DNA of 64,000 nt from Eledone cirrhosa (lineage: Eukaryota): assembly GCA_964016885.1 (NCBI GenBank), contig OZ024740.1:17484001-17548000 (forward strand). Direction: 5' to 3'. The notes below the pieces were generated by a model that saw only the letters and a list, made by a program, of their open reading frames with translations, did not search any database and was not told where the DNA came from. Positions 1,168 through 48,226 of the stretch are shown here, piece after piece. The position numbers and the translations under genes are program-made. Positions within the stretch are counted from its first letter, which is position 1. Each line of letters starts with the position of its first letter.

Positions 1168-1370
1168 TATAATGGTTTCTGATTTAGGCACAAGATCAAC
1201 AATTTAAATTGAACCAGTATGTTACTGGTACTTTATTTTACGATAATGACCTCGTAAGGATGAAAGGTAAAAGCTAACCCTCAATGAGATTTGTACTTAG
1301 AAGGTAAAGTGTCATAACTCTATACTGCAAAGCATGTCCGATGCTGTACCAATTATTGCCACTCTACCGC
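1168..1370 (-). mobile_element. tRNA-derived SINE family 1, diverged copy
   Basis: Reverse complement aligns by eye to the copy at 15101..15327 (ttgcctttcatcc / ataaagtaccag / ttgtgcctaa blocks). Confidence 0.75.
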
Positions 1371-12037: not shown

Positions 12038-12086
<49 letters not shown>

Positions 12087-12116
12087 ATACACATGCATGT
12101 ATGTTTGTTTTATACA

Positions 12117-12167
<51 letters not shown>

Positions 12168-12246
12168 TTATTCACTAATTTATCACTAGATACAAAACCT
12201 ATATCATTGCCAAATACCCTATCTTTTAAGATTGCCTATTCTTGGT

Positions 12247-12342
<96 letters not shown>

Positions 12343-15300
12343 CATATATATACATATTTACAAATATAAATGAGAAAGATGTATTGTCTACAGTCTACTG
12401 CCAAAAATGTTCTCAACTGTTAATGCTCAAAGGTCAGGTAAGAATTTGCATTGTCTTTGAATTGTCTTGGAAGAGGGCTGTTTGCATGTGGGCTGGTGAG
12501 TGGGCTAAAATACTCAAATTCTTTTGTCCCCCTCCCCACTCCCAAACTATTTTGTTTTGTTTTTTCACACACTGACGTCAACACCACTGCCATGTTACTA
12601 GAAACCATATACAGATAACTGAACTTCCTAATGTACACATTTTATATAACAGTTAATGGCCTGCTGTTTGTCAGTAATAACTGTTCGTTAACAATTACTA
12701 TCATGTTTATTTTCATATTTAATGAACATTATGTAAGATTAAGACAAATGGTTAATGAGTTCCTGTACAGGTTTATAATCTTTGTTAAAATGTAGTTCAT
12801 TTCACATATTACAAGATTGATATAGTTTTGTTCATTAACAAACTAACACAGAGAGGATTCTGGCCGGTTTAAATGTTAAATGGTTAGCACGTTCATTAAC
12901 ATGTAGTAACAGTGAACTATGTTTGTTACATAATACTGACATAGTAGTTAATGAAAAGGTCATTACCAACTTTATGTAGGTAACATAAGATTGGCAACTG
13001 TCTATATTGGTATCATCTAGATACCATGTTCATTGCAGTACAGTGAGGTGAACATATTGTCATGGGATGACAATATGTTCACCCCAAGTCTGGGACACAA
13101 CACCTGCTTTGTTTTTTATTTTTTTATATTTAAATTTAAATGTCATTACTTTACTAATTTAATTAAGAAAAACAAATAACTAATGTAAAGATTCATCCTA
13201 TTTTATATGTTAACTTTTCCTATAAAGTGTTGTAGTTTGCTTGAAGCATTGTGGAGTATGAGATACAACTATAACTAGGAAATAAGTTTGGTTGTATAGA
13301 GAACCCTGAGAAATGTTGTGGGTGGCTGTTCAAGTTCTGCCAGGATCAATTTTACAATCCATTCTTCTCTGATTATTAACTTTTCCATGACCACATCTTT
13401 AATGAAATACTCTCCATTTTGATTAATGAAGAATTTTGAGGTATTTATTAAAATGATTAATTACTTCATTACTAAGATAGTAACTTAATGTAAGGTAAGC
13501 ATCAGTGGTTCAGTGGTAGAATGCTCACCTGAGACGTGATCGACCCTGCCTCGTTTCCTGGCCAATGCACATAAACATATATAATGGAGGTGCCTCAGCA
13601 TGGCCTCAACCTGTCGGTTGGAACACGTGATAGAGTAACAGAGTAATATAAAATTATATTGGAAGATTTTGATTTAAATTGGAAACCTTTAAAATTGGTG
13701 ATTTTATGTCATAGAACCAGAGCTAGTTTTGGTCGCGTTTGTAACTAAAGGGTTAAAATAACATACCAGTTATGAACCGAGGTCTGATTTTTAATAAAGT
13801 GTTCCCTACCTCAAATATTCTGATTTTGTGCTAGTATTAAAACTCACAGAGTTGGTAGACCAACAACAGACAAATCCATTTTATGTGGGGTTTAGTTATA
13901 TCTCTGTTTTGTGTTTAAATCTCACAGGAACTGTAGCCTTTTTTCATCCTCCAAGGTTGATAATGATAAAATTAGTGCCAGTTAATCTTATTACCATATT
14001 TCCACAGTCTGCTATTGGAAATAATCAAGAATTTGGAGGGATTTAATAATATAATTAACCCTTTAGTATTTACATTACTCGGTATTTACTATTGTATTTT
14101 CACAGTAAAGGTTTTACCTCACAATATCGAATCAATGAGATTTTGATATTATTTATTTTGAGAACTTAACATCAGTATGGGCAGCCGGTTACAGCCAGTT
14201 TGCACAGAAAGAGGTGAGGGAATTCTGGCTGGATACGACTGGTTTAAATGCTAAAGGGTTAATGTTCTCATTAATACAGTGGATTGGCAGTGTCAGTTGA
14301 GCATTGGATAAAATGCTTTGTGGCATTTAGTTATGTCTTTCTACGTTCTGAGTTCAAATCCTGCCGAGGTCAACTTTGCCTTTCATCCTTTTGAGGTGAG
14401 GTACCTAAAATAAAGTACCAGTGAAGCACTGTGGTCAACTTAAACCCAAAATTGCTGACCTTGTGCCTAAACTAGAAATAATTATGTTGTAAGATATTTT
14501 AGATAAACAAACACTTCCAATTTCAAATAGTCATGTGTTGTGGAACAAGGGTCAGTTTGTTTGGATTCATTGTCCCTTCCAAGATTTATACATTTCTATC
14601 TATGCAAGTAATCATCATTAGTATTTTTCTTATATCAAGGTGGTGGATTGACAAAATGCCTTGTGGTATTTGTTCTGGCTTTTTTTTTTTTTGGTAAGTT
14701 TTGAAGGAAGGGCAGAGTGCACCCTAAGGCCAGAAATATTGATGCCAAGGACTCCGTTTAAACTGCTGCTGGTCTTCACATGTCCCCTGAGACAGCACAT
14801 CTAGGGGTCAGCTGGAAGAGAGTGACTGACTTTTGGCCAAATAGCCAAGTGACTTTTTTTGGATGTGGTTTGAGAAACAACACTACCATCCCAAATATGG
14901 GAGCAGGGCTCACCTGAACTTGTTAAGGTGTTGAAGTATTTTCTGATCCTAAAGAGAAGGGCCAGTCATTTGGGATGTAGTCCTGGCTATTGACATTTTA
15001 CATACTGAATTTAAATTCTTATGGGTTTGATTTAATCAACTTTTTCTACCCCACCAAAATATTGGCCTTGTGCTTAAATTAGAAACCATTATTATTACTA
15101 GGGCAGTGGATTGGCAGTATCGGTAGAGCGTCGGACACCATGCTTTGCAGCATAGAGTTATGGCCCTTTATGATCTGAGTCCAAATCCTGCTGAGGGTAA
15201 CTTTGCCTTTCATCCTGACGGGATCGATAAAATAAAGTACCAGTCACGCACTGGGGTCGATTTAATCGACTTTGCCCTCCCCCAAAATTGCTGGCCTTGT

Positions 15301-18300
15301 GCCTAACGTAGAAACATTATTATTATTTATTTGATTTTATTACTGTTTTTACATCTATTATAATTCTTGCAAGAGTACTATAGGGAATGTGTTGCTATTG
15401 CTAACTGAAACATTTGTATAATGAGGAGGCAATGTTTGTATTGTCAAGACTATTTCTGCTCATGACAGTCAATATTAACCCCTGCTTAACCTGACACAGT
15501 CTATATTAATCTCTAGTTAACCTGACACAGTCTATATTAACCTCTAGTTAACCTGACACAGTCTATATTAACCTCTAGTTAACCTGACACAGTCTATATT
15601 AACCCCTGCTTAACCTGACATAGTCAATATTAACCACTAGTTAACCTGGCACAGACTATATTAACCTCTAGTTAACCTGACACAGTCTATATTAACCTCT
15701 AGTTAACCTGACACAGTCTATATTAACCTCTGGTTAACCTGACACAGTCTATATTAACCTCTGGTTAACCTGACACAGTCTATATTAACCACTAGTTAAC
15801 CTGACACAGTCTATATTAACCTCTAGTTAACCTGACACAGTCTATATTAACCTCTGGTTAACCTGACACAGTCTATATTAACCTCTGGTTAACCTGACAC
15901 AGTCTATATTAACCAATAGTTAACCTGACACAGTCTATATTAACCTCTATTTAACCTGACACAGTCTATATTAACCTCTATTTAACCTGACACAGTCTAT
16001 ATTAACCTCTAGTTAACCTGACACAGTCTATATTAACCTCTAGTTAACCTGACACAGTCTATATTAATCTCTAGTTAACCTGACACAGTCTATATTAACC
16101 TCTAGTTAACCTGACACAGTCTATATTAACTTCTAGTTAACCTGACACAGACTATATTAACCACTAGTTAACCTGACACAGACTATATTAACCACTAGTT
16201 AACCTGACACAGTCTATATTAACCTCTAGTTAACCTGACAGTCTATATTAACTTCTAGTTAACCTGACACAGACTATATTAACCTCTAGTTAACCTGACA
16301 CAGTCTATATTAATCTCTAGTTAACCTGACACAGTCTATATTAATCTCTAGTTAACCTGACACAGTCTATATTAACCTCTAGTTAACCTGACAGACTATA
16401 TTAATCTCTAGTTAACCTGACAGTCTATATTAACCTCTAGTTAACCTGACACAGACTATATTAACCTCTAGTTAACCTGACACAGTCTATATTAATCTCT
16501 AGTTAACCTGACACAGTCTATATTAACCTCTAGTTAACCTGACACAGTCTATATTAATCTCTAGTTAACCTGACACAGACTATATTAATCTCTAGTTAAC
16601 CTGACAGACTATATTAACCTCTAGTTAACCTGACACAGTCTATATTAACCACTAGTTAACCTGACACAGTCTATATTAACCACTAGTTAACCTGACACAG
16701 TCTATATTAACCACTAGTTAACCTGACACAGTCTATATTAACCACTAGTTAACCTGACACAGACTATATTAACCACTAGTTAACCTGACACAGTCTATAT
16801 TAACCTCTAGTTAACCTGACACAGACTATATTAATCTCTAGTTAACCTGACAGACTATATTAATCTCTAGTTAACCTGACACAGACTATATTAATCTCTA
16901 GTTAACCTGACAGACTATATTAATCTCTAGTTAACCTGACACAGACTATATTAACCTCTAGTTAACCTGACACAGTCTATATTAACCTCTAGTTAACCTG
17001 ACACAGTCTATATTAACCACTAGTTAACCTGACACAGTCTATATTAACCACTAGTTAACCTGACACAGTCTATATTAACCACTAGTTAACCTGACACAGT
17101 CTATATTAACCACTAGTTAACCTGACACAGTCTATATTAACCACTAGTTAACCTGACACAGTCTATATTAACCACTAGTTAACCTGACAAGACTATATTA
17201 ACCACTAGTTAACCTGACACAGTCTATATTAACCTCTAGTTAACCTGACACAGACTATATTAATCTCTAGTTAACCTGACAGACTATATTAATCTCTAGT
17301 TAACCTGACACAGTCTATATTAACCTCTAGTTAACCTGACACAGTCTATATTAACCACTAGTTAACCTGACACAGTCTATATTAATCTCTAGTTAACCTG
17401 ACACAGTCTATATTAACCACTAGTTAACCTGACACAGACTATATTAACCACTAGTTAACCTGACACAGTCTATATTAACCTCTAGTTAACCTGACACAGA
17501 CTATATTAATCTTTAGTTAACCTGACAGACTATATTAATCTCTAGTTAACCTGACACAGACTATATTAACCTCTAGTTAACCTGACACAGTCTATATTAA
17601 CCTCTAGTTAACCTGACACAGTCTATATTAACCTCTAGTTAACCTGACACAGACTATATTAACCACTAGTTAACCTGACACAGTCTATATTAACCTCTAG
17701 TTAACCTGACACAGACTATATTAATCTCTAGTTAACCTGACACAGTCTATATTAATCTCTAGTTAACCTGACACAGTCTATATTAACCTCTAGTTAACCT
17801 GACACAGTCTATATTAACCTCTAGTTAACCTGACAGTCTATATTAACCTCTAGTTAACCTGACACAGTCTATATTAACCTCTAGTTAACCTGACACAGTC
17901 TATATTAATCTCTAGTTAACCTGACACAGTCTATATTAACCTCTAGTTAACCTGACACAGTCTATATTAACCTCTAGTTAACCTGACACAGTCTATATTA
18001 ATCTCTAGTTAACCTGACACAGTCTATATTAACCACTAGTTAACCTGACACAGACTATATTAACCACTAGTTAACCTGACACAGTCTATATTAACCTCTA
18101 GTTAACCTGACACAGACTATATTAATCTCTAGTTAACCTGACAGACTATATTAATCTCTAGTTAACCTGACACAGTCTATATTAACCTCTGCTCATCTGT
18201 GATGCCTGAAAGTGTGCAGCCGAGTGGTTAGGGTGTTAGGCGCATGATCATAAAGTCAGTGATTCAATTCCTGGGGTAAGCATTATATCCACTCATCTGA

Positions 18301-18981
18301 AAAGCTGAGGGTTAACTCTATGATGGACAAATAGGCCAATGAGTCTCTAGGTTATCAATTTCTTTATGGTCAAAAGTCTTCTTCCTGTAACCATCCCACC
18401 TTTCATTGAGACATATTCTTACTATTACATTAACCAATGTGTATTTCTCATATTTATGACAACATACATTTTAGAGTAAACATTTGACTGCTCTATCTAG
18501 CAAGTTCAATAACTATATAAAGGTTATGTTCACTCTAGAGGTTTTTTTTTTTTTTATATATATCAAGAACTATTTTTCAAAATACTGAAATATATTCTAG
18601 GAATTATACAGTGAAATGGAATGTTTAATAAAATGTACAGAAAAAGGAAAGTAATATTGGAAAGAACTATAAAGGCCATAAATGAGAGGGGAGAGGAGAC
18701 AGACTCTTAACTACATAAAAATAATTTAATATTTAGTCAAACATAGAAAAAGAAAGTAAGCTCTGAAAACTATATTGTCTGTGACTTCTTTTTAGTGTGA
18801 TGTGGCTGCTATTTTTAGCAGGTCAGGTGATCATTTAATCCCACTTCCTTAGTTTTAGATTTCAATTTGATCAAATGTTCCACTTGGCTGCTCACACTGT
18901 GTGTACTTGTTAACCTTCTCTACTATGAATTACCTGCAGAGTTATGATGATACCTTTGCCTATATTGGCTTAGTAGTATTG

Positions 18982-19013
<32 letters not shown>

Positions 19014-22000
19014 GGTCATGGTAGTAATAGTAGCAGTCAATTGTGGTGGTGGTGTCATGGCGGTAGTAGAAATGTTGAACTAGTGACTGACCAGCAATGT
19101 TGGTCAATAGCAACCCTAGCAGAGCACCACAATCTAAACTATTCTACCTCACATGAATTCAAACAACATATCTGTCTTAACATTTGATAATTAAATAGGT
19201 TCTTTTTGTTTCACAAGAATTTACTTGTTCACTTATCACCTTTACAACCACCCTTTGCCCTTCACAGATTAAGAAAACTAATAAAATAACCCAGTTGTGA
19301 GCTTCACTGCTGGACTACCACACTAGAAGGTTATGTCTCCTTCCCTGTTTCTTCCATGTTACTCAGAGACACCATCTGCATGAAAAATACAGGATGAAGT
19401 TTGAATTTGACTTATGTGTCTATCTGTCTGTGCTTATATCTACACCACTTAACAGCTGGTCTTGTTTAGGTCTCGTAATTTAGTGGTTTTATAAGATAAG
19501 TGTAAGTGCCAGACTTGAAAAATCTATATGATCACTTAAAACTTTTGATAGTGGTGTCTAAGTATGGCTACAGTCCTCAAACACTCCAGTGGGTCCTGTC
19601 AGAAGCAACCATCTCCAATTGATCCGGCTGGATCTTCAAGCAAGACCAGCCAAGCTCATGGATGTTATCCCAGCATTTTGCTCTGGGTCTCCTGCCAGTT
19701 GGTTTTGCCCATAAAATCTGTCCAGTTATTCTTTCCTGAGGCATTCTCACCACATGTCCATAGTATCGAATCTGTGATCTCTCAATTTGGAGAAGTAGTG
19801 GCTCTACCTAGAATAACACTCTGATCTCTGAGCTACAAAGACCCTTCAGAGGAACCACATTACGGCCACTTGTATTAGCGATCGTATTATTTTGGTCATT
19901 ACCTAATATTCATGATTATAATGAGTTTGGCTTTTACACCATCCTCCCTTCTGATTACTAAATGCTGAAGCTGGCACATTACTGCACCAGCTCCTGCAAT
20001 TCTTGTACATAATACAGCCTCCTGCCTTCACTATTTCCCCATCTCTATATTCAGAACTATATTATCAATTGTTATGTAGCTCCAGGACAATCCTTTGTCA
20101 TTCTGTCAGAGATTTTGCTGCTATTTCTAGCAACCTTGTGACTCTTGTTTGGTTGAAGACTTTCTAAACACATGGGTTCATGTTATTTTCGAGTCCTGAT
20201 AATGATTATAACAAGCAATCATCAGTGATGGGTTGCTGCACTATATTGTTTGATAAAGCATTATTAGAGCCATAATACTGGGTAAAGTAAGGAGTAGCTT
20301 TGTGTCTTGATAGAAGTAAATTTAGAGACAACTGCAACTGCTGCACAGGATCAACCGTAAAGCTGTACAGTGACAATTGCATAGCTACACAACCAACTGC
20401 AGGCATGCTGCTGCACACTGACAATTACATAACATGGCTACACACAGACAAACTAGTTGTGCTGTTGCACAATGACAATTGCATGACTCCACAATAACAA
20501 TTACATGTTTACACATTGATAACTGCAGGTATTGTGTTGCACACTGACAATTGCATAACATGGCTATACACAAACTACAGATATTGGTTGCACAATGGTA
20601 ATTGCATGACCACACTGACCGCATGTGTTCTGTTGCACAAATTACATTACATGGCTATACACAAACTGTAGATGTTGGTTGCACAATGACAATTGCATGA
20701 CACCACACTGATAACTGCAGGTGTTGTTGCACAGTGACAGCTGTAACTACTGCACACGCAGATTTTTATGTTGAGGTGATTATTGTGCTGAAAGTCTTTG
20801 ACTTAATGTGTTGCAGATGGTACGCACTTAATATTTGATAATCTGTTGAATCTGTTAGATCCTATTGGGGTGGTGTAGGGTAAGATCCTACTGGGGTGGT
20901 GTGTGGTTAGATATACAACCTATTTAATCATAGGGCCAACACTAGTCTTTTTCTGTATTGGTATAACCATCTGACCAATTGATCTGTTAGATGTAGCAGT
21001 TAAATTCCAGTCAAATCGTACTTCACATTCTTAAAAAAAAATTGGGACACATTGGATGTCTTTTGGGGCTTCATGCACAAAAGAAATGGGATGGTCACAG
21101 CTGGAATGTCTTTTGTCATAGGTCATTTTGATCTAGGTGGACTTGTGGTTAAACAATGACAATCATTTACACGCCTACACACAAACATAATACTTTCACT
21201 TACGTTGCTATCATGTTCTATCCTGCCATGACTCACTCTACCAGCCTATCACCTTCTCCCCCTTTTTACTCATTTTTGCTCATGGCCACCCCACCCCCTT
21301 TAGATTACCCTCTTTAAGACACCTTTGCTTTGAAAGTGCAGAAAGGACAGGTTTGCCATGTTGGGAGAGGCAGGGCTCTGTATTAATGCCACAATAGAAT
21401 GTGCTCCATGTGGCATAGAATAGAGTTCTATTGTTTTTGACAGTACCACAGAGCTGTTTAGCACTGGTGCTACAAGAATATGAAGCTAGTATATTGTTAT
21501 TTGTTTGGTGTTAGCATGGGTTTCTAGCTGTTGAACCCAAGCCAAAAATAGAATATATGAACCAAGTGTGGTTCTTTGACACATCTTGGAGGGCAATAAA
21601 TCCAAATGGGAACCAGATTGAATTATAACAACCTGCCCATCCCATGCCAGAATGGGTTTGACATAAAATGATAATAACAGTATGTGTATATGTCACAGAT
21701 TATAGTTAATATTACCTGTAAATACCTATATAACTAATTTAGTTTGTGGTTATTATTTATAGTAATTTTAGTTACTTTGAGTGATTGGTTTGTTTTAAGT
21801 TGTGTATAAATCCCCTCATTATCCCACTGCCACCACAGTATATACTCACAGTTAGTGTTCTGTTCAGAGTCCAACCATTGAAGGCAGCTTCCTGTTAAGA
21901 GTTCAATTTCTATCAGTCACACACAGTATATATACATATATGTCTCTCTCTATATATATACATGTGGCCTAGTGGTAAGGGTGTTGGACTTACGATCATA

Positions 22001-25000
22001 ATGTCATGGGTTCGATTCCTCGACTGGTTGCGTATTGTTCTTGACCAAAACACTTCAATTTATGAAACTCCAGTTGAAATCAAAACCAGCAACATCTGAG
22101 GATACTTGTACTCTGTCGCTTCATGCCATGAAACAAGGATTTAGACTTAGATATGTGTTAGGGTATTAGGTTAAACATACTCCTATATATACAGCTCCTA
22201 TGACTGTTATAGGGGTCTCTCCTATATATACAGCTCCTATGACTGTATCGGGGGTCTCTCCTATATATACAGCTCCTATTACTGTATCAGGGGGTCTCTC
22301 CTATATATACAGCTCCTATGACTGTTATAGGGGTCTCGCCTATATATACAGCTCCTATGACTGTATCAGGGGGTCTCTCATATATATACAGCTCCTATGA
22401 CTATCAGGAGGGTCTCTCCTAAAATAAATCACCTCTTATATACCCTATATATACTCAAATATAAACCATACGCCCCTGTTTTATGTCAGAGAAAAGAGCA
22501 AAATTCCAAACCCCATAAGTCGAGACGGCTAATCAACACATTGTTTAGATGGTATATATAACCTCCTCCCATCCCAATTTTACCATTGATTTTTTTTTTT
22601 TAGGGCACATATTCCTTGGTTTATATTCAAGTATATACAGTGTGTAAAACACTAATATATAACTATCATATATTTATGTGTGTGTTTGTCTAGATGACTA
22701 CAGTTGGTTGTGTGGCTGACATCTGATAAAAGAAATCACCCTCAATAGTATGAAAATAGAGTTAAACATTTATTATTCATGGAATCAACTAAACTGTAAT
22801 CTTATTTATTTCATTTAGACTGTCAATAAATCAAAATCTTCAGTTTTCCTTTATAAAAAAGCCACTTGTATATATATATATATAGGAAAATGTTAGACCC
22901 CGTTTCGATGGCTATTTCTGGACTCCAGAAATAGTCGTAGAAACGGCTTGAGTTCTGCCGTCGGGGTCTAACATTTTCCTATTACCCACTCTACTACCAT
23001 AAGTATTGAGTACTCTGGTGCGTTATGGTCCATCTGGTTCCTTACCACACCTCCTTCGTTATATATATACATATATATATATTTTATGAACTGATTTGAT
23101 TTTTGATATTGGTTGATATTGGATGTATTGATTTTATTGATAACCTTAATTAATTTGTTCAATTATTGCCATTAAGCTACTATATCTGAATTTCAGTTAG
23201 CATTGGGTAAGATATGTTTCTTTTATTTGCCACCAGGGCATCAAAAGTGGGACAAGTACAAAGGGGGGAGTTTACACAAAAAGGCGTCCTCAATAAGGAG
23301 GAGGCAATAACAAAATATAAAAATAAAATAAAATAAAATATAACAAAAAATAAAATTTGTAACAAAATCCTCAATAGAGAGGAGGCGCCTTGGGGGGTCG
23401 CACACACCCCCGAAAAAAGTGTGCAACCCTTTTCCTCAGGAGCACAGAGAGGGGGTGCTCCCTCGTTCCTTCCTCTTCTCCACCTACAGGCTTATGTAAA
23501 GAGAAGGCCCATTCACACGGGCCATTCTCGCCACTTTCACCCACCTTTCATAAAAACGACTGGGGTGGAGCACCTCTCTCTCCATCCTGATCCTTCTTCC
23601 GAAATGATATCGGAAGAAACGGACCAGTTGTTGGCCAGAGAGAAAGGTGTCTGACCTCAGTCCTTTCAGACGCGTCCACCATACAACCTCTTTCGCCATG
23701 GCTATTACGCACAGAAACACCGCCTCTGCTTCATCTTTGAAGGGGGGAGGCGGCTTGATCATTACAATAGACTCGGTGGTCAACCGGATCGGCCCCACCC
23801 TTGACAGCAGTTGTTCGACATAGCCCCACAGATCGGCTACGCCCGAGCAGTGTACCAATGCGTGTGCAACGGTTTCCTCGTCGCACACGCATCTGGGACA
23901 TCTTTTTGGCGGGGTCCCTACCCGGGCGCCCGTGTCTGTAGAGCCTTTCTCGAACGGGTAAAGCCCCTCGGTAGCACTGCCAGGCCAGGGACTTCTGGAA
24001 GTTGTCCATAGGTCCCGGGCTGAATGTCCTACCGAACAGGCTGGCCAGTTCGTCCTCCTCCATGTCTAGGGCTTCTCCGAGGGCGTCGTCGCACCTGCTG
24101 CGTACCAGCCCTCTATAGAATGTTGCGGTGGAGTCTCCACTGATAACCAGATCCGCCTGCCAGAGGGCGGTGAGCGCCTGGGCACACTCGGTGTGCCAGG
24201 CGCCCAGTTTTCTCGGTCTTTGCTTGACCCAGGATTGCAGCTCGGTGAGTGAGACGAGTCTGGGAAAGGTTCGTCTCACAAACGAGGCCCACACCGGTTG
24301 ACAGGTGAGGAATACGTAGAGGTGCCGTAGCCTTAATGCGTGTTTACGCATCATTAGCCACGGCATCCCCAGCCCTCCTTTCGAAGGGTGTTGACAGCAG
24401 ATGGATCTCCTCACCATAGGAGCCCGCCTCTTCCAAAGGAATTGGAAGAGTGCTCGCTCCATCTTGGTGAGGGTTTCCCTTGGGCAGGGCACTACGGTCA
24501 GGCGGTAGTAGATGACGGACGCTATGTAGGTGTTCGCCACCTCCGCCCGACCTTTCAGGGATAGTTTGCAACTGGCCCACTTCTGGGTCAGTGCAAACAC
24601 CCTGTTCGTAACCTCCGCCCAGTTTTTCTACACCTGGAGGTCCGGTCCGAACCAGACCCCGAGCAACTTCACCGGGCCCTCCGTCCAGCGTCCGACGACG
24701 CCATCGGAGGGCATCGGTCTGCCCCTCCACGTGCCGAGTTGCAAACCGATCGACTTGTCCCGGTTCAGCTTAGCCCCTGTGAACCTTTCGTACTCCTCCA
24801 GTAAGGTGCCGACCGCCTCGATTTCGGAGGCCGTCGACACCATTACTGTCACGTCATCGGCGTGGGCCGACACCGCTTTCCGCAATCCCGGTTCCAAAGG
24901 GATGCCCTGCAACAACTCCAACTTCCGCAGTAGTGGCTCGAGAGTCAACACATACAGAAGGGAGGAGAGAGGGCACCCTTGTCGGATGGACCGCGCGATT

Positions 25001-28000
25001 TTGAACGGCTCCGAGAGGTAGCCGTTCACCTTGACCCTAGAGCAGATGCGGCTGCTGTGCATAGCAGTGATCCAGCCCCTGAAAACGGGTCCGAAACCTG
25101 CCGCCGCTAGCACCGCATCCAGGTAACCATGGTCGACCCTATCGAACGCCTTAGATTGATCCAAGTTGATCAGAGCCCCACCAAAGCCGGGTTCGTTCCC
25201 AACCCTCTCTATGATGTATCGCATGAGGTGGAGGTTGTCATGGATGGACCTGGACAGGATAGCGCATCTCCCACCAGGTTGCCCACGACAAGCGCCAACC
25301 TCTTTGCTAGCACCTTGGCCAAAATCTGTAACTCTGTATTTAGCAGAGTTATGGGCCTGAAGTTACTTATTTCGTCCCCCTTGTTCTCGTCCTTCCTCAC
25401 TAGCGTGACTACGCCCTTGGTCACAGTACAGGGAATTCTCCCGTTCTGTTGCCAGTTGCAGTAGACCGCCTCGAGGAGATCGGGGAACAAGTCCGGCATA
25501 GCTAGATATAATTCGTAAGGAAGACCATCGAGACCCGGGGATTTGCGTTTGCCGCATTGGCTCAGCACGTCCTCTATCTCAGCGGCCGAAATCGGCTCCT
25601 CGCAGGACTTCGCCTCCCTGTCCGAGAGGCGCGGCAGGCCGTCGAGGTATGGACTGAAGTCCACGTTCCCAACCGGCTCCCCACCCCGAACAGTCGGGCA
25701 AAGTGCCTTTGAAAGGCCTCACACATCTGCTTAGGCTCAAGAATCGCCCGTCCATCCAGGTCTCGCAAAGACCGGATGGTGGATTTAGTTCCACTGTTGG
25801 CCTCTGTCACGCGGGCCCAGCTAACAGCTTTGGCCCCAGCTAACAGCTTTAGCCCCCTCGTTCCCTAGAGCACGTATTTTACTTCGGACAACGCAGCCTT
25901 CGTGCTTCGCGTCGAAAAACTGGCTCAAAGCTGTTCTCGACGCTAGCACTCTGGCCACGTCGCCGCTTCTAATTGCCTCTTCTACTCTATCTATTAGCTC
26001 CCTTTCTTTCCTATTCCTATCCGCAGCTAGAACCTTACTAAATTCTATCGAGACTGCTCTAATCTCTCTCTTTAGAGATACCCACCACCTGCTGTTGACG
26101 ATCGCTCCAGTCAACCGTTCCTTAACTAACGTACTAATTCGATCCCTGTAGGCTCTACTTGCCGGCAAGGACAAGTTGAGCTTCCAGTAACCGGGGCCCT
26201 GTCTATGCGTTCTATCAAGGTTGACCATGCAGGTCACCAACTTGTGGTTTGAATAGCCAACCATGAGCATTTCTGGACAACTTAAAAAGTCCCTGTCCTT
26301 ATTTCTAACTAAAAATCTATCTCGGTACGACCTAGATGATCTGCTGCGATTTGACCAAGACCAGGTTGGCACCGTCGGAAAATCTAGTCGAAATCTAGAA
26401 AAGACTCCAGACGCTGGAAAAAGTCGGGCCGCTCTGTCCCAAAAGGGGCATATGCGGCTACCAGCCTAAAGGCTCTACCTTCACCACTGCCAAGGTCCAG
26501 CACCACCAGTCGACCCCCTGGGTCCAAGTGAACTATCTGTGTTGCAAGGCCCATATGTTTTTGCAGCAGAACGACAACCCCACCGCCACCTCCGGGCTGA
26601 CAGAGAGATGCGTGCATCTCAAAGTCGTCAAAGGTGGGGGCTAGCTGCCGCATGCTGCTGATCCGGGCCTCGCAGATAACCATCACATTTATAGATTGTG
26701 ACCTGAGGTCATTTAGAAGCATTGCTTGCTTCCAAGACGAGCCCAGGCCACGCGCATTTAGACACTCTACTCTTAGCACAGCCATGTTGGTGGTAAGGAG
26801 AAAAGGCACTTACCTCTCTGCGTCCCGGGAAACGGGCCGCTCAATTTCCATGCTGGTTGGGGATGGGTTGTTGGGTGGGGTGGTGGTTTGTGGAAGTGAA
26901 GGGGCATTGGGGGGGGGGTGAAATTTTTTAGGAGGACGCGGTTGATTGGTTTGGCGCAGGGGGGGCCCACGTCCTCCGTGAAATTTATTTTCAGTGTTTT
27001 GTACAAGTGCATTGGGACTTTTATCATTTTTAAATGAGGTAGTCCCACAGCAGTTTTAAAGTTAGGCCCTTTGGTTTGGACCGAAGTAAGATAGTGCCTA
27101 GCCCACACTGTAAAGTGGTTCTGTAGGTGTCATGATAAAACACCTAGCCCACACTGTAAAGTTGTCCTGTAGGTGTCATGATAAAACACCTAGCCCACAC
27201 TGTAAAGTTGTCCTGTAGGTGTCACAATAAAACACCTAGCCCACACTGTAAAGTTGTCCTGTAGGTGTCACAATAAAACACCTAGCCCACACTGTAAAGT
27301 TGTCCTGTAGGTGTCACAATAAAACACCTAGCCCACACTGTAAAGTTGTCCTGTAGGTGTCACAATAAAACACCTAGCCCACACTGTAAAGTTGTCCTGT
27401 AGGTGTCACAATAAAACACCTAGCCCACACTGTAAAGTTGTCCTGTAGGTGTCACAATAAAACACCTAGCCCACACTGGAAAGTTGTCCTGTAGGTGTCA
27501 CAATAAAATACCTAGCCCACACTGTAAAGTGGTTGTGTAGATGTCATGACAAAAGACATCTATCCTACACTGAAGTGGTTGTGTAGGTGTCAACAAAAAG
27601 CACTCTGTAAATGTGGTTAGTGTTAGGAAGGGCATCCAGCCATAGAAACCTAGCTAGAAACAGTTCTGTATGAGCCAGATATGGTCAACTGACCTGGTTT
27701 GTGTAGGGTCAATTGGTCTAACCCATGCTAGCATGGACAATGGACATTAAACAGTGATGATGATACCTGAAATGCCATTGTCCCAACATAGAGGACTTTA
27801 ATAATTTTCTACTTTTTGGCACAAGGCCAGCAATTACCCAGTGCATTTCTGGTACTTTTTTATCGACCCCGTAAGGATGAAAGGCAAAGTTAACCTCGGC
27901 GGGATTTGAACTCAGAATGGCAAGGGTGGTAACTCTGTGTCAAAGCATGCCGTCCGACCCTCTACCGATACTGCCAATCCACCGCCAAATAATAATAACA

Positions 28001-28391
28001 TACCCCTGGAGGTGGGGAAATGTGGATTGTTCATTATAGTCATTATTGTTGGGAGAACTACATTTTAATTTTCCCAATGCTTCTTAAATAAACTAGATGT
28101 GAGCAATGCTACTTACTACAGCTGGTACCTGTTTCAGCAGATTGGTTTTACATGACTTAGATATTCAGTTTAAAAGTGTGACTTAATACCAACATCTGTT
28201 TGATATTGGTGTAATATGTTGAGTTTTTATATTAAAAGAGAGCAATTGAAGTTTCACTTCAACATATACATATATTCTTTGTAATCACACGTGTTTCATA
28301 AATGACCGGCTCAGTATTGGTCATTTGTGAAATACTGTTACACAGGATTATGAATTGTATATATTAAACTGAAACTCCACTCTCTCTTTCT

Positions 28392-28450
<59 letters not shown>

Positions 28451-28632
28451 AAAGGTAAACAGAAATAGCAGGAAGAGGGTCTTAACATTTCGGAAACTAG
28501 TCCTTCATCAGAAGAAAGAATGAGAAACAAGATAGATTGAAGGGACGGGCGGGTTGGAATTGGAAAAAGTGTCTCTAGATAAAAATAACAGGTCCATTCA
28601 TGTGACATCTCTTAGAGTTGATGCTGACATTT

Positions 28633-28666
<34 letters not shown>

Positions 28667-31600
28667 AAGCTATGTGAAGGCGTGTGGCTGAGTGGTTAGA
28701 GAACTGGATTCGCAATCGTAAGGTTGTGAGTTTGATTCCCGGACCAGGTGATGCGTTATCTCCTTGAGCAAGACACTTTATTTCACGTTGCTCCTTCTAC
28801 CTGGAGTTGCGACCGATAGATAGTATTACCAACTGGAAAGACCGATGGAAACATTGTTTCCTCGGTCTCACATGACGAAAGTCAATTGTTCCTATGTATA
28901 GCTATAGAATGTATCTCTGGTCAAATGTAGATGTTGCTAGATTATTGGCTCACAAATATACATAAATTAAGTGGAGACAAAAATGTTTGCTAGAAATCCT
29001 GTCCCAGGCCCTCCCCCCCCCCCTCTATTCTTCTGTGATTCTACAGCTCTCCCTCCTATTCTTCTGTGACCCTACAGCCCCACCCCTCCCATTCTTCTGT
29101 GACTCTACATCTCCCCTCCCATTCTTCTGTGACCCTACAGCCCCTCACCCTCCCATTCTTATGTGGCCCTACAGCCCCTCACCCTTCCATTCTTCTGTGA
29201 CCCTACAGCCTTTACCTTTCACTTTTCTGTTTTTAAATATTTGTAGTAATTTGTGTAAATCTTTCAAAAATGTTAAATGGAAAACAAAATTATGAGGTGT
29301 GTGTATATATAGGCATATATAGTAAAGAGAGTGTATGTGTTATGCAATATAAAATCTATGCTTATATAATATGTAGTACATTTGTATGCATACTTGACAC
29401 GTGTGTATATGTGTATATATAATACATCTGTATGTTATATGGCACTTGTGCATATGTATATATGTATCTATATAAAATTTTTAGTATTAATATTTAATTC
29501 AAGTTTATTTAAAACTGTTTTCAACTTGACATGTAAACCTAAGTAAATTTTACTTATTGCTGGATCCTATAAGTCCTTGTACAAACAATATATATCTAGA
29601 TATTGCACACTTGTATACTAACATATTGACAGCGGAAAGTTCAGTATTCTTAGAAAAACAATCAAGTTTGTTTTCCATTTCAAATGAGAAAGCCTGTCTT
29701 TTACAATGTATAATAACTCACTTTATTAATATTCCATTTTATTTGAAGTCAGTTTTGTTGTTGTGGGCTAACAGGGTTTATTATTGTTTTCTGGGAATTT
29801 GCAATGTCATTCTGAATGGAATTAAGATTATTAAGATTAAATATGTTGTATATGGTTAGCCTAGCATGACTAAGTATACAGATATAGATGTTTGTATGCA
29901 GTGTAAGGGTGGGGAGATATGCATAAAGATTTTTATTTATCAATATATTGGATAGAGGGATAAAGATTTACCTATATGTATAAAGATTAACTGAGACATA
30001 CATGCGTATGTGTGTGTGTATATATATATGGTGCTCCCCCAAAATGTATACACATTTTGATTACCTGTACAGGCAATAGTAATTAGAATGCTGTTGAAGT
30101 ATGTATACATTTTTGGGAAAACCCATACATACATGCACACATATAAATGTTCAGTGAATCCATACATACATATATATGTGTGCATGTATGTATATATATA
30201 TACATACTACTGTACGTCTGTATACATATATGTATGTACGTGTACATACTTATATTTAAGTAACAGCCGTACTAAGAGTGGGAAATGAAATTTCGTTTCA
30301 TTTTTTCCGTTTATCGTTTTCGGTGCACCCGGCCGATTAACCCATTCGATATGCAAATTGGGCTACTCAGCCGTTAATATGCATAAGGTAAGTATATACG
30401 TTCAACAATCTGGCAGGAAGGTATACGTTGCTGACGATAGCTAATAAGCTTGAAACTAGTACAGCGTTCCTTTGTCAGTGTTGAACAAATGAGCAACGAT
30501 GGTTGCTAGACACTACGGCTTAATACGGGATGTTTGTTTACAAACACACCGAGCATTATAATAAATGTTCGGTGAATCCATACGTACATATATATATGTG
30601 TGCATGTATATGTATATATATACATACTACTGTACGTCTGTATACATATATGTATGTACGTGTACATATATGTATGTACATGTACATACTTATAGTTAAG
30701 TAACAGCCGTACTAAGAGTGGGAAATGAAATTTCGTTTCATTTTTTCCGTTTATATATATAAAGTAATAATAATAAATTTGAAGACTAAAATCCAAAGAG
30801 GGCTCGATAAGGATAAATATATATCAAATATATAAGAACCCTAGAGTAAACTTTAATCTGTTATTTTAATAAATATATACATATATATATATACACATAT
30901 ACATATACATATATGTATGTGTGTGTGTGTGTGTGTAGTTTAAAATAAATGGAACCCTGTGGTTGTTTATGTCTGTAGAAAGTGTATTTATTGATAAACT
31001 GTAGCGTAATATGTCTTATATTTGTTGTTGGAAGAAAAGTTTGTTTTGGAGCAATTCTTTCTTAGGGGTACAAGAAAAATGTTTCCTCTTCATTAGTTCA
31101 TAAGAATGGTGAAGAATGGAAGAGAATTAGTGATAGGACTTCATTGCCTTTCTTATCTTTCATTTTTTGAACCCATTACTTTGTGGTGTTTGTTCCAATT
31201 ATCTGCTGAGGTCAGCTTTATCTTTCATCCTTATAGGAGTTAAAGTAGCAGTCTAGGGCAGTGGCTTATCAGACTCCCTGTATGTGAATGTGTGTGTATA
31301 TATATTATATATACAAGCTGAAGTTGAAGCATATGGACAATATGCCCCCCCCCCCCCCCCCCACCTCCTACAGCAAAGTGGCCATGGAGGCGCCATAGCA
31401 AAAAAGCACCCAGCCCCTCCCACTGCGAAGTGGTCGTGGAGGTGTCATGGAAAAAAAGCACCCAGCACTCACTGTAAATGAGGTTGGTGTTAGGAAGGGC
31501 ATCCAGCTGTAGAAATCAAGCCAAAATCAGTTCCCGTATGAGCAAGGCATGGACAGCTGACTGGGCACTGCCCACAACAGGACAACCCGTCTAACCTATG

Positions 31601-31946
31601 CTAGCGTTGAAGAATGGACATAAAATGATGATATATATATATATTTCGTTTCATTCTTTTCCCTTTATCGTTTTCGGTACGCCCGGCCGACTAACTCACT
31701 TGATATGCAAATTAGGCTGCTCAGCCGTTAATATGCATAAGGAAAGTATATACTTTCAGACGTTCAATCATCTGACAGAAAGGTGTACGATGCTGATGAT
31801 AGCTAATAAGCTTGAAACCAGTACATCGTTCCTGTGTCACTGTTGAACAAAAGGGCGACGATGGTTGGTGAGCACTGTACGGCTTAATTCAGCCTGTTTT
31901 TTTACAAACAAACTGAGCATTATAATAAATGCTCGGTAAATCCATA

Positions 31947-32008
<62 letters not shown>

Positions 32009-35000
32009 GCCTTTCTGTTATAATACAGTAATGCCATAATACTGTATGACAACATCTGAGATGCTTTGTGGTATTTCTTTTGTCACTTTGCTTTCTGGGG
32101 TTTATTTGGGTGGGAGATTTAATACCATCATCTAGTCATTGTGTGCCTTTAGCAGAATCAATTCTGTTGCAAGCATTCAGGGGCCAGGCCGTCAGATAAG
32201 GATACCCTCCTCACACCCAGCAGTCAGGTCCTGAAAACTAACTAGCACTGCCCTTCTTTACCTGACTAAACAGGAAAGAAAATGTTATGGTGGTGGTGAT
32301 GATGTTGATGATGATGATGGTGGTGGTGGTGATGTTCTTTCCAAGCATGACTTTTAATTAGGGCACTGTCACATTCCAGAGGACTTCCTGATATACCTCC
32401 TCCTCCTACCCTGCATTGCCCCCACCCCACATCCTTTTCTGACACACACCCTCCCCCTCTCTCTATTCAACACTACCCTCTTTCTTCTTGTCTTAGATTC
32501 TCTGGCACCAGTAGTTATTTTTCTTTTTACATTTTATTAATATATTTTCTTTTAAATTTCATAGTTCAGCTCCACCCACCTTTCCCCTCTTATCTGCTTA
32601 CCACCCCATCTTGCACCCTCCCTATCTCCTTTCCAAATGTGCCCCTCCCAACTGGTCTTCATAGTCACCCACCACTGCCACCATTTTTATGTTATAGAAT
32701 ATTTGAAAGGAAAAAAAAAATAAGAGGCTACTCCCTTGTACTCATCAGCATCATCATCATCACCATCATCAGCATCATCAGCATCATCATCATCATCATC
32801 ATCACCATCATCAGCATCATCAGCATCATCATTATCACACTCTTCATAATACTTGTTGTTGTCAATGTAATGTCTCTGTCTTCAGAAGAATAAACAGAAA
32901 ATTGATGTTCACACACATACACACCTATTTTTTTTATTCCAACACTTGTGTGCATGCACGAATAAATGTGTGTGTATGTGTATATATATACACACACACA
33001 CACACACACATTTATTCGTACATGCACACAAGTGTTGGAATAAAAAAAAAATAGGTGCGTATGTGTGTGTGTATACACACACACACACACACACACACAG
33101 TTGTCTTAGCCAAGTTTTCTTCTTGACCCCCCCCCCCCCCATCTCTCCTGTTACTTCCAACTACCTTCCACCACCTCTACTGCCACTACCTCTACACCCA
33201 TAGTCAGATGGTGTCGCACAGTATTATATTACTACTGTATATAAAACACATGCATGCACGTGTTCATATACACACACACACACACACACGTGTTCATACA
33301 CACACAAGCTGGCTAGTTTTTTTTTTTCTCAAAGATTGCAAGTGTGTGTGCGTGTATATATGTGTATTATGTGTTTATATGCATGTCCCTGGTTCTGTGT
33401 GTATGCATTCATATACATGTATGTGTTTATGTACATTGTATGTATATGCATACATTGTGCATACATATATACATCACATCTATGCATATATACATTGTAT
33501 GTGTATGCATACATATACATGTATTTATGTACATGTGTCGGTGTGTGTGTATGTATCCACATCTATGTGTATGTGAGCAGCTGTATGTGTCACTTGTTTT
33601 ATTGGACTATGCAGTTTTTGTAATGGAAGAATGTATATTTTGTTTTTGGCAGATGTGTGTGTGTTTATGGAAATATTTTGTTTAAGTATGGGTGTGTGGT
33701 AGATTGATGATCCCGAGAGAAGTCTGTAGCTGGAATCTCATGTCTTTATCAGAGAAAATCTGAAATGATTACCATTGGTATGTACCCACACACATACTTT
33801 CATAGTTTCCAGCCCATTGAAGGGCCACTGTGCAGTTATTTGACCTGCTAGAAAGACCAGCCAAATCTTCCTCAAGTTACATGAATGTTTCAGTTATTTG
33901 ATAAACAGAATGACCTACTCATTAAATTGTGTAAGTGGTTGGTTATTCCACAGAGTTTCTCAGGTAATTCTCAGAGATTCAACATGTCACAGTATGTGAC
34001 ACAGCTGGTCCTTCGAATTACAGTGGAGACTTCTGGCGTCCCCAACCTCGACCACATCTCTACTCACTGCTATCGGAGTGGAATTGGCCACCTGCAGGTG
34101 TGAGCCCCATAAGGTGGAGTCACTGTTTCAGCGTGTCTCTCTCATGGTCCTGTGGGGCAATGCATTCTCCATCCTGTCATCAGGGACCCAGAGACGGGGT
34201 GGGGAATAGTTATTTGGTGGTGGAGGATACTCATTCGGACATCACTTCAACAACTAAAGTATATTTACAAATACAAACATATATGGTAGGGTGGTGGTGA
34301 TGATGATGGTAGGGTGGTGGTGGCGATGATGGTAGGGTGGTGGTGGTGATGATGGTAGGGTGGTGGTGGTAGTAGTGATGATAGTTGAGTGATGGTTGGT
34401 AATTGAATGTTGCTGGGAATATTAAAAAACAAAAATAAAGTTTATTTCAATAACCCCCCCCCCCCCCCTTCCCATGTTCTTGTTCCTCCAACACCCACTC
34501 CAATTATTCTCTTCAGTCACTCCCAAACTACTTAACTCTCCACCCTAGCCCTGCTTCTTTCACCCCCCCCCCTTAACCCAACTCTCCACCCTCCACCTGC
34601 CTGTTTCACCCCTTTTTATAGCTTTGACACCAGCCCCATCCACTCCCCTATATCATTTAGATGATGAAATACTCATAAACACACTTTCACCCTCACACAC
34701 CAATTCTCTTTGTGTACAACACATGAAAAGATATAAGCAAAAAGGGACAGTGTGTATGTGTACACATACTTATATTTTGCTTATTCTGAATATTTAGTAC
34801 ACACACGCACACTCACACACACCTTCATTCACACCCTCATTCACACCCTCACACACATGCACACATACACTCACACATTTATTGGTAAGAATGTTGTGAA
34901 GCTAATTGTTAGTATCAGAATGGCTAGAACTCCTTCCACTGTTTACAGTCTTTGTATATGTCAGTGTGAATGCTTGTTTTATGAGTTTCTGTAATAAACA

Positions 35001-37763
35001 CAGTAAACATGTACTAACTAGGGTAATTTTTATAGAACCTAAATATGTCTTTAATAGTGGCTGTTTGTTTTAAAATTTTACTGAAGCTACTGGCTTTTCA
35101 AAACAGTCTTTTTAAAACATTGTTTTGGAAACCTTGTAAGTTTGGCAAAGTTTTGAAGTGAACAGATGTATTAATAACAGATATATACACATGTAGGATT
35201 GGTGCTTCTCTTAAAACAAAAAATAATTATGTAAAATAATTGTTTCTACTTTTGGCACAAAACCAGCAATTACCCAGTACATTACTGGTACTTTATTTTA
35301 TCAACCCCGTAAGGATGAAAGGCAAAATTAACCTCGACGGGATTTGAACTCGGACCGTAAAGGGACGTAACTATGCTAGAAAGCATGGCGTCCAATCCTC
35401 TACCGATACTGTCAATTCTCTTTTCTTTCATATTGTACCTGACTATAAAAGATGGTGAACCTTGATAAAGAGTACATGTGGCTTGAGGTGTGGAAAAGGA
35501 AGGAGGGGGGGGGGGGTATGACAAAAACATTGTTGACAACTTAAAGCTCCCACTATGTAGAGGGGGGAGGAAGGAGTTAGAGGACAGTAAGTTTGACATT
35601 GACACTGTGGCTGCTAGGAAAACTCAGAATTGCATCCAGAAAGTTGAGTAGTTCATTGAAGAAGGCCTCTATTAGGATATGCAAGATTGCCTGCTGTGAT
35701 AAGACTTTTAGGACTTATATGAATGAAGACCTTGCTGCAAGTATTACCTGATGTCAACAGGTCAGCTGCTCCGTCACCTGCGTCCAAGGAGAACTGTATG
35801 AAGAGAGACAAGAAGCTGTTCAATGTGATGAAGTATTCCCTGGAATTAAACATGGGGTTTTTCTCCAGAACAAGGTACACAGCAAGGAGAATAACAGGTG
35901 GTTCCCAGGGTCATGAAAACTAAAGTTTTCTGTCCACATCATGGTTGTTAGTGTAATTAACAGTGAGGGTCATGTGAAGCCCCCTTACATCTTTAATGTA
36001 GGCCTGAAGGTGAACCAGTTCTGGAGACTGGTGAAGCCCTTGATTAAAGTGGTGACAGTGGGGAAGACTTTGTCTTCCAGCAAGATTCTGCACCTGCACA
36101 CATGGCCAGGAAGACACAAAAGTGGCCATTTAAGCCCAGACATATGGCCTCCTAATCCTTGACTATTTTTTCAGGGTACAGTTGAGTCACCAACAAGATT
36201 GCCTACAACACCAAGGACAAGTTGAAGCAGTGGCTAGGCATTCCAACTGCAACCGTGAAATGCACCTCCATTCCGAGGTCACCTCAAGGAGGTTATTAAA
36301 GTTAGCGAGGGTTATAATGAATAATTATATCATATACAGTTCTGGTAACTTCATGCATCTTGAATTTTCAATATATATTTGTCTTATGTCTCTATATATT
36401 TGTCTTACGTCTCAGACACCATCATAATATCTCAATATATATTTGTCTTATGTCTCAGACACCATTATAATATCTCAATATATATTTGTTCTTTATGTAC
36501 TAAACCTCCTCATAATATACTAATATATATTATGTTATATTTCAAACACTTGTTTAATATACCAAAATGTTTCAAAGGCTATCATATTTGTCTTCTGTTG
36601 TGTTCCAAACACCATCTCATTATTTCAACATATTTCTTATTTTCCAAGTGCCATCTTAATCTTTTAAGCTATATTATAACATTGAGATAATTGTATTTTT
36701 ACTAGGAATATGGCTATAGATGGGTTAAGTTAGATCGTTTAACTATTGTTTCTTTGTATTATTGAGTAGCATTGGTGATGTAGGATATGAGAAACTGCTG
36801 CAGCTAAACAAGAACAACTTTAAACTTAAAAGAGACATGAATTATTTCTTGATAGCCTACACCACATAAAACCACATTAGCAAGACACTCTTGAAATTTA
36901 ACAGCACCATGGCTGCATTGCATTAAAAATTAAAGTCTTTACACTAATACTACAAATTTTTACAACTAGTAAAACACTATAAACATTTGAATTAACAAAT
37001 CTGTTTTTAGATATTTTCTGTTGAATCATTAGATGTTAAGACATAACTTTACCCTTTCGTTACTGAATTTTTAATGACATATTTCAATTAATGAATTTGC
37101 AGGAATTTAATAAAATTATTTCATTATTAAAATAGTATTTCTAACATGGTCTATCTGTTGAGGGTGGTGATGTGAGTTGGTGGTTATGGAGGTTCATTTG
37201 GGGTCAGATTTTATAGGATGGGATGGAAGTGGCTTAATGGTAAGCATGTCTGTTACTTGTGGTCTGTTTTTTGTTGGGTGAGGTGTAATATTTATATTAT
37301 AAATGTTTTTCATTATTTTCCAGATTTCTTTGATGCTTGTACAACAGAAGAATTAACAAATTTTTGTTGCTGTTATCGAAGATCGGAGAGGTCACGGGAC
37401 TATGAGGTAATGTCACGCTTGTCTTTATCTCTTTCACTCTCTCCCTTTTTAAACATTATATGATGATATATATATGATGATATACATATATGATAATATA
37501 TATATATATATATAGTAATAATAATAAATTTGAAGACTAAAATCCAAAGAGAGCTCGATAAGGATAAATATATATCAAATATATAAGAACCATAGAGCAA
37601 ATATTTATTAAAATAACAGATTAAAGTTTAAGCAAAGAATCGCTGCTTCCACCCTTAACGGGATCTTCTGAAACTGAGTTTCAGAAGATCCCGTTAAGGG
37701 TGAAAGCAGCGATTCTTTGCTTAAACTTTAATCTGTTATTTTAATAAATATATATATATATGA

Positions 37764-48185: not shown

Positions 48186-48226
<41 letters not shown>

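Follow-up and report, generated by a model that had tools for sequence, protein, structure and literature searches.

Two hammerhead motifs within copies of one repeat

We examined a 64,000-nt stretch of the Eledone cirrhosa genome (assembly GCA_964016885.1, contig OZ024740.1, positions 17,484,001 to 17,548,000 of the forward strand; "the window", numbered from its first letter), where two hammerhead ribozyme motifs lie in sense within one 26-kb intron of an MPP8-like gene, each inside a copy of the same repeat. A descriptor made of CUGANGA, a pairable helix II, GAAA, the U-H cleavage site and a helix I of at least 5 bp was scanned over both strands of the window and matched exactly two type I hammerheads, both on the plus strand; the same scan of 200 dinucleotide shuffles of the window gave a mean of 0.015 matches, with one match in 3 of 200 and two matches in 0 of 200. 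The motifs and the repeat copies that hold them are as follows.

30425..30467, plus strand: hammerhead 1, type I; core starts at 30431, predicted cut after A30461
30425-30430/30462-30467, plus strand: helix I of hammerhead 1
30431-30437, plus strand: core CUGACGA of hammerhead 1, with GAAA at 30452-30455
30439-30442/30447-30450, plus strand: helix II of hammerhead 1, with U·U at its base (30438/30451)
30455-30460, plus strand: palindromic helix III of hammerhead 1, ACUAGU
31787..31829, plus strand: hammerhead 2; core starts at 31793, predicted cut after A31823
31790/31826, plus strand: variable helix I pair of hammerhead 2, A-U
30143..30560, plus strand: first unit of copy 1; 3' hairpin end, TA-rich spacer, structured core with the hammerhead
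30561..30754, plus strand: partial second unit of copy 1 (0.46 unit) without a hammerhead, ending at the equivalent of 30314
31643..31945, plus strand: copy 2, solo, 84% identical to copy 1, flanked by (AT)n tracts
31944..32006: (AT)31 tract at the right end of copy 2
30400..30486, plus strand: long stem extending helix I past the internal loop (loop 1); minimum free energy z = -3.5
30320..30385, plus strand: two further unit hairpins, predicted in both copies
30549..30572, plus strand: terminal unit hairpin, predicted in both copies

Hammerhead 1 reads ACGTTG CTGACGA TAGCTAATAAGCTT GAAACTAGTA CAGCGT (30425-30467) and hammerhead 2 reads ACGATG CTGATGA TAGCTAATAAGCTT GAAACCAGTA CATCGT (31787-31829). 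Judged by their letters, the two motifs are type I hammerheads for which self-cleavage is predicted; the sequence and the descriptor scan bear out a preliminary description of this DNA, which had both copies keeping CUGANGA and GAAA with cuts expected after 30461 and 31823. The two ribozymes differ at 4 of 43 positions. Two of these are the partners of helix I pair 30428/30464, where copy 1 has U·G and copy 2 has A-U, so that both sides differ and the compensatory change claimed earlier is present; the third is N7. The fourth, T30457/C31819 in helix III, had been overlooked when the differences were said to be limited to N7 and the pair, and it turns helix III of hammerhead 2 into ACCAGU, in which C31819 breaks the palindrome. 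The description of both hammerheads as intact is right about two real motifs and goes too far for copy 2, which has lost its palindrome and for which an off-pathway fold is more stable (see below).

The features of canonical metazoan type I hammerheads that are present here are CUGANGA, GAAA, the U-H cleavage site, ends joining in helix I, and a 6-bp helix I followed by an internal loop. A short helix III with a palindromic loop is found in copy 1 and in the majority of the family but not in copy 2, and the G10.1-C11.1 pair is absent from both copies, which have U·U at position 10.1/11.1 (the helix II base) instead of the usual G-C. Rfam returned no hammerhead at gathering score in the window and none at E<=1 in a 3.3-kb query; with 101-nt queries the cores aligned with that of Hammerhead_HH9, at scores (19.7 and 16.3 bits) far short of the gathering score of 52, and the sizes and some bases of loops 1 and 2 match the HH9 consensus in what is a sequence alignment, not a three-dimensional one. 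Hammerhead_1, the model by which the motifs had been expected to be recovered, was absent from the results for the window, the 3.3 kb and the 101-nt queries. MicroRNA matches returned by Rfam for the 3.3-kb query were rejected as TA-repeat noise.

When the sequence was compared with itself, each ribozyme proved to lie in a copy of a single repeat, and the two copies agree at 84% of positions over about 350 bp. Its unit is 418 bp long, with 37% guanine plus cytosine (GC) and a longest ATG frame of 57 aa. Copy 1 (30143-30754), a partial tandem, comprises 1.46 units repeating every 418 bp and contains one ribozyme. Both copies fold more stably than their shuffles (z -3.3 and -2.8), and each is predicted to form three more hairpins besides the long stem that extends helix I. 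ARAGORN, consulted for a tRNA or RNA polymerase III head, called 0 genes.

Directly left of copy 1 (about 30030-30125) there is a short element with imperfect inverted ends, seen by eye, possibly a miniature inverted-repeat transposable element. A 46-bp tandem array of 9.8 copies (27097-27546) and a 52-bp duplication (31364-31466) look related by eye; the latter adjoins a stretch just left of copy 2 that we take to be like a short interspersed element (SINE).

Abundance, joints and ends of the family

The family was surveyed by mapping four public sequencing runs to 30255-30585 (331 bp) at 80% likeness. Matches amounted to 9,635 of 16.3 million contigs in run X1, 111 of 762,587 contigs in X4 (a run of unrecorded kind), 60 of 8.25 million contigs in X5 (which has a different organism label) and 46,247 of 12.47 million reads in X21 (restriction-site-associated DNA, RAD-seq), a share of 0.37% of the reads of this one reduced-representation library. 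Three rough estimates of copy number were made from the RAD share, from the density in the window, and from summed depth over single-locus depth, depth itself being no copy number; with a genome size that we take to be 2.5-3 Gb they lie between 2x10^4 and roughly 10^5, and extend at the extreme to 5x10^5.

Fifteen joints were listed, with 22 more beyond these. Among those listed, the head-to-tail joint 30585>30255 is supported by 205 reads from 8 starts and the joint 30506>30255 by 57 reads from 2 starts; tandem joints therefore exist elsewhere in the genome, with no single piece covering a whole unit. Eleven of the 15 listed joints change strand, and one of them also occurs in an X1 contig of depth 11, which is single-locus depth. 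In 7 of these 11 the read starts at the AATT site 30289 and runs leftwards, which implies a head-to-head truncated inverted neighbour; those found in X21 only may be library chimeras. Sixty X1 contigs stop at 30314 and continue as (AT)n, and the second unit of copy 1 stops at the equivalent position. Inverted 5'-truncated copies, a short tail and a bias towards microsatellites are given as properties of Penelope-like element (PLE) insertions in the parts of 10.1101/2021.04.23.441226 that treat them, and such marks are found here at the family level, as inverted truncated neighbours and a shared end at 30314 with (AT)n. Two further candidates were rejected. X21 read starts and ends at 30289, 30356 and 30359, considered as RNA ends, coincide with AATT sites and are artefacts of the restriction library; the clustering of inverted joints at 30255-30268, considered as a boundary, reflects the detection limit of this AATT-site library.

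The ribozyme is among the deepest-covered parts of the unit in X1, X4 and X5, consistent with conservation across subfamilies. A second subfamily was seen in X21 over 30398-30489. About 10 differences near the ribozyme go together in it, among them U·G in place of A-U at 30418/30472 and a G·U pair at 30428/30464, and the sequence behind 30489 continues differently (11,035 X21 reads); this subfamily could be a diverged unit or the pseudo-long terminal repeat (pLTR) of an autonomous partner.

Pairing of helix III and a proposed cycle

The intermolecular helix III was computed with a nearest-neighbour model without tertiary contacts, and gave -4.8 kcal/mol for the copy 1 homodimer, -0.2 for the mixed dimer and +1.4 for the copy 2 homodimer. 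By the same model an off-pathway monomer fold, with the core CUG paired to loop 3, is favoured by 1.4 kcal/mol in copy 1 and by 3.2 kcal/mol in copy 2. Few family members share the palindrome change of copy 2: none of the 5 T>C places among X1 variants at >=4% falls on it (31 of the 36 variable places being listed). Because its palindrome is lost, its computed dimer weakened and its change rare in the family, copy 2 is likely a decayed, crippled copy.

Metazoan type I hammerheads are characterized, in the sections of PMC4209133 devoted to them, by a 6-bp helix I, a 4-bp helix II and a helix III of 1-2 bp capped by a palindromic loop, and by efficient cleavage only as dimers. The cleavage results of PMC7229834 include axolotl retrozyme monomers with a one-pair helix III or a U·U helix II, of which 6% and 22% were cleaved in 1 h, dimers that cleave much better, and units accumulating as circles; such units are linked to PLE pLTRs in the relevant part of a 2026 preprint. 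By analogy with these systems we think it probable that the 418-bp repeat is a non-LTR retrozyme, a ribozyme-cut mini-element copied by Penelope-like enzymes, whose cleavage and expression are predicted. The earlier assignment of the motifs to the Penelope- and retrozyme-type hammerheads of mobile elements, with a short palindromic helix III, is in this respect supported, the palindrome of copy 2 excepted.

In the cycle that we propose, inferred from described retrozyme families, RNA polymerase would read through tandem arrays on the plus strand, and neighbouring hammerheads would form a dimeric active site by base pairing between their palindromic ACUAGU segments, the dimer being needed because helix III is too short alone. 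Double cleavage would then release unit-length RNA with 5'-OH and 2',3'-cyclic-phosphate ends, to be ligated to a circle; a Penelope reverse transcriptase/endonuclease would prime at AT-rich DNA and copy more than one turn, which could leave permuted partial tandems (like copy 1) and inverted truncated neighbours. Both copies in the window, with one ribozyme each, are likely passengers; the ribozyme of copy 1 is intact and has no palindromic partner in cis.

Pairing states in the family and in metagenome contigs

Position 30428 is T, A or G in the family and position 30464 is G or T, so that this helix I pair occurs in A-U, G·U and U·G states. The share of a purine at 30428 matches that of T at 30464 in X21 (0.93/0.92 and 0.44/0.46) and in X4 (0.85/0.86).

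Exact-core patterns matched neither viral nor metagenome contigs (0 in each); a relaxed pattern, with core and helix II fixed and with helix I and the middle of loop 3 free, had 0 matches in viral contigs and found 10 metagenome loci. L003 and L004 were rejected as chance, being one CRISPR RAMP coding gene. The remaining 8 loci, in five families, have a perfect helix III palindrome in 8 of 8 cases (ACUAGU, ACGCGU, ACAUGU, ACACGUGU) and a helix I of 4-6 bp in 7, the eighth being clipped by the contig end. Covariation was scored on six rows, copies 1 and 2 with L001, L002, L006 and L008; besides the two chance loci, L005, L009 and L010 were left out as members of the family of L002, and L007 as misaligned. 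Each of the 6 helix I pairs, and each of the two outer pairs, varies in both partners, and 96% of cells pair; the covariation score was reached by 0 of 500 shuffles, and slid controls dropped to 19-44%. The palindrome pair is broken in one row only, that of copy 2. These loci share only the ribozyme with the window, and therefore support the fold and the link to retroelements, not common descent.

One of the loci, L002, encodes a 479-aa reverse transcriptase (1348-2784, minus strand; Pfam RVT_1), whose nearest Atlas clusters are eukaryotic, most commonly Rotifera, and carries TTAGGG repeats; it is likely an endonuclease-less, telomere-associated PLE. The other members of its family, L005, L009 and L010, have the ribozyme subtype of the window together with TTAGGG repeats. 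Separately, L001, L005, L006 and L007 show terminal direct repeats with periods of 1,075, 1,069, 987 and 1,690 nt and one hammerhead each, that is, tandem or circular units exceeding described animal retrozymes, and L008 holds two more hammerhead-like motifs of other subtypes within 6.5 kb (1918-1950, plus strand; 3969-3994, minus strand).

The MPP8-like host gene and other elements of the window

The ankyrin exon at 47407-47652 has its best match, at 93% identity, in P0002, a chromo and ankyrin protein of Octopus sinensis, with Argonauta and cuttlefish relatives next; residues 730-1020 of P0002 match the solved C-terminal MPP8 region (E=5e-31), and the protein maps in order to plus-strand exons from 10391 to 55606. 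MPP8 is, we presume, a subunit of the retroelement-silencing HUSH complex. The part of the gene around the repeat copies is as follows.

10391..11249, plus strand: MPP8-like exon upstream of the intron, 87% identical to P0002 residues 398-680
11250..37323, plus strand: intron of 26,074 nt, GT...AG, holding both copies in sense
37324..37406, plus strand: MPP8-like exon downstream of the intron, with further exons to 55606

The sense orientation within an MPP8-like intron that was noticed earlier is therefore correct, one exon ending at 11249 and the next starting at 37324, both on the plus strand. The consequence drawn from it, that the ribozymes could cleave the host pre-mRNA, found no support as an effect on the gene. 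As cited second-hand in PMC2995048, intronic hammerhead cleavage left splicing efficient in cells and only the fast hepatitis delta virus ribozyme blocked it. Cleavage of the MPP8-like pre-mRNA would be slow and would probably leave splicing unaffected, and an effect of the ribozymes on the host gene is unlikely because the copies are expected by abundance (about 0.2-1 copy per 26-kb intron), because they are lone ribozymes with a weak helix III, and because intronic hammerheads are tolerated in published work.

Four other elements were seen in the window. A long open reading frame (ORF) of a long interspersed element (LINE), at 48103-50460 on the plus strand, encodes 786 aa with RVT_1 and a PHD-like finger and lies in sense in a later MPP8-like intron; a GC-rich, frame-broken LINE with a reverse transcriptase (23484-26809, minus strand) lies in the 26-kb intron of both copies. 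A transposase remnant (Pfam DDE_Tnp_1_7) is at 52626-53171 on the minus strand, and a degenerate tRNA-like sequence at 13499-13569 on the plus strand (Rfam 34.2 bits, not called by ARAGORN) is probably the head of a SINE.

Alternative interpretations

Several observations weigh against a retrozyme whose fold is under selection. As a working definition, the Li et al. 2026 preprint takes a retrozyme to be active when two units in a row carry a hammerhead, and neither of the two loci has such a pair; inspection of the TA-rich flanks by eye revealed no target-site duplication, which in retrozymes exceeds 4 bp when present, and the extended stem is broken by several changes (30472 in copy 2, 30407, 30400). 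The 2026 preprint also includes a set of Xenopus dimers, of which only 1 of 9 cleaved in vitro. The copies differ at 38 of 296 aligned bases, and because the divergence outside the ribozyme is 13.4%, finding 12 core bases unchanged between them has P=0.18; two copies alone do not show selection, and the argument that the preliminary description built on them falls short. Among the listed X1 variants the core has none except at N7, an invariance of the 12 core bases with P=0.32; variants that break predicted pairs number 7 of 28 against a null mean of 9.1 (P=0.25), so that the test for selection on the fold of the whole unit is not significant. The allele shares at 30428 and 30464 are unphased and represent two or three events, and they do not match in X1 (0.35/0.52) or X5 (0.40/0.79). 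Absolute depth of T30428 and G30464 does agree in five strata (about 808,000/787,000; 237/218; 312/256; 517/669; 5,897/6,616), and a diverged subfamily with an under-mapped 5' part is thereby suggested as the source of the mismatch. Lastly, the metagenome set was picked with a pattern derived from the window copies, and may be convergent, not related by descent. On balance, selection on the fold is supported, at the level of sequence, by the allele shares together with the covariation across distant families, and not by the two copies alone.

The inverted joints, the shared end and the (AT)n targets are PLE marks, and would also be expected if the copies were truncated, rearranged pLTR ends of an abundant autonomous PLE, with the hammerhead serving the parent. 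We hold this unlikely, but it is the alternative that deserves most weight: 30 recently active Penelope families are counted in Octopus vulgaris in the part of PMC13282606 concerned with them, pLTRs and retrozymes are treated as closely related in the 2026 preprint, the second subfamily diverges behind 30489 (the 11,035 X21 reads above), and most reads leaving the left end are untraceable, so that many copies could have an upstream ORF, a further point against the retrozyme reading. Within copy 1, however, the sequence before the ribozyme part is the same as that after it, which leaves no room for an ORF; head-to-tail joints are found at >=8 other starts; and the ribozyme is of canonical size, without the bulged base, the long helix II or the G10.1-C11.1 pair of PLE minimal hammerheads. 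An ORF with reverse transcriptase and GIY-YIG flanked by the repeat was found beside neither copy: the ORFs of >=100 aa in 27-35 kb are of low complexity by eye, and the 25 frames scanned included two reverse transcriptase ORFs, 5 and 16 kb away, neither with a GIY-YIG match. That the family is inert, satellite-like DNA spread at the DNA level, its hammerhead a relic under no current selection, would fit the non-significant selection tests within the family, and slippage with unequal exchange also yields partial tandems and TA-rich spacers; the dispersed copies, inverted joints and shared end point instead to retrotransposition, and with the deep coverage of the ribozyme in X1, X4 and X5 and the three pairing states at one helix I position they make this reading very improbable. 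We give as little credence to a co-option of the two copies as a paired intronic ribozyme, a heterodimer that would cut the MPP8-like pre-mRNA, excise 1,362 nt and tune expression. Both copies are indeed in sense in one intron, 1,362 nt apart, the heterodimer could form 5 of 6 helix III pairs, and conserved intronic ribozymes are known from amniotes (in the account of PMC7761336); but about 0.2-1 copy is expected in a 26-kb intron at 10^4-10^5 copies, the rare change of copy 2 weakens the dimer, core conservation between the copies is not above expectation, and splicing stayed efficient despite intronic hammerhead cleavage (second-hand, PMC2995048, as above). Even fainter is the prospect of a wider scheme in which octopods would harbour tens of thousands of active retrozymes with a doubly weakened (U·U, dimer-only) hammerhead missed by Rfam, read-through of long introns would supply small circular RNAs in abundance, and the heterodimer of the window would excise 1,362 nt from the MPP8 pre-mRNA; if true, the ribozyme of a retroelement would tune the silencer of retroelements.

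Comparison with known systems

No octopus hammerhead or retrozyme family was found described in the literature, and none appears in the main texts, as far as these were available, of PMC7229834, PMC6765202, PMC13282606, PMC4758252, PMC5680766 and PMC7761336; Lünse et al., the supplement of PMC7229834, or Repbase/Dfam may contain it or its ribozyme subtype. The giant squid genome paper, in its annotation results, counts 235 Rfam Hammerhead_1 loci without analysis. If the retrozyme reading is right, hammerhead retrozymes would extend to cephalopods, and the family would probably be a measurable genome share that is invisible to standard Rfam annotation, leaving the known picture of retrozymes and PLEs unchanged. 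Five unrelated metagenome families also combine U·U at helix II with a helix III that is strictly palindromic, and this subtype would offer a natural test set for dimer-dependent cleavage.

With the retrozymes the repeat shares a unit of 150-450 bp, GC below 50%, no ORF, a high copy number, and dispersed and tandem copies; unit lengths tabulated in PMC7229834 are 350-390 bp in mussel, 330/350 bp in axolotl and 220-245 bp in coral. The animal non-LTR retrozymes of that report are likewise non-coding units of low GC with a type I hammerhead and a self-paired fold, present as tandem and solo copies in numbers from thousands to 10^5. Of its axolotl ribozymes, HHR_Amex1 resembles the helix III of the window (one pair and a palindromic tetraloop) and HHR_Amex2 its U·U at the helix II base. 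Unlike described retrozymes, the window ribozyme combines both weakening features, its unit has a variable TA-rich spacer, the host is a cephalopod, a group of which the main texts consulted make no mention, each local copy has a single ribozyme, and circular RNA of the element is a prediction.

PLE pLTR hammerheads, as portrayed in parts of PMC4209133, Craig et al. 2021 and Li et al. 2026, have the palindromic helix III and partial tandems in common with the repeat, to which inverted truncated neighbours and microsatellite targets can be added; in L002 the subtype adjoins a reverse transcriptase and telomeric repeats. The repeat is unlike pLTRs in having no reverse transcriptase/endonuclease ORF beside either copy and a ribozyme of the canonical, not the minimal, type. 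Likeness to Rfam Hammerhead_HH9 (RF02275) and the conserved intronic hammerheads of amniotes lies in the 6-bp helix I, in aligned positions of loop 1 and the 6-nt loop 2, and in the intronic sense position; the differences are low scores (19.7/16.3 bits, where gathering requires 52), the lack of a stable helix III, and a high-copy mobile family in place of a single conserved locus. The family is apparently an undescribed cephalopod member of the class of non-LTR retrozymes and Penelope derivatives.

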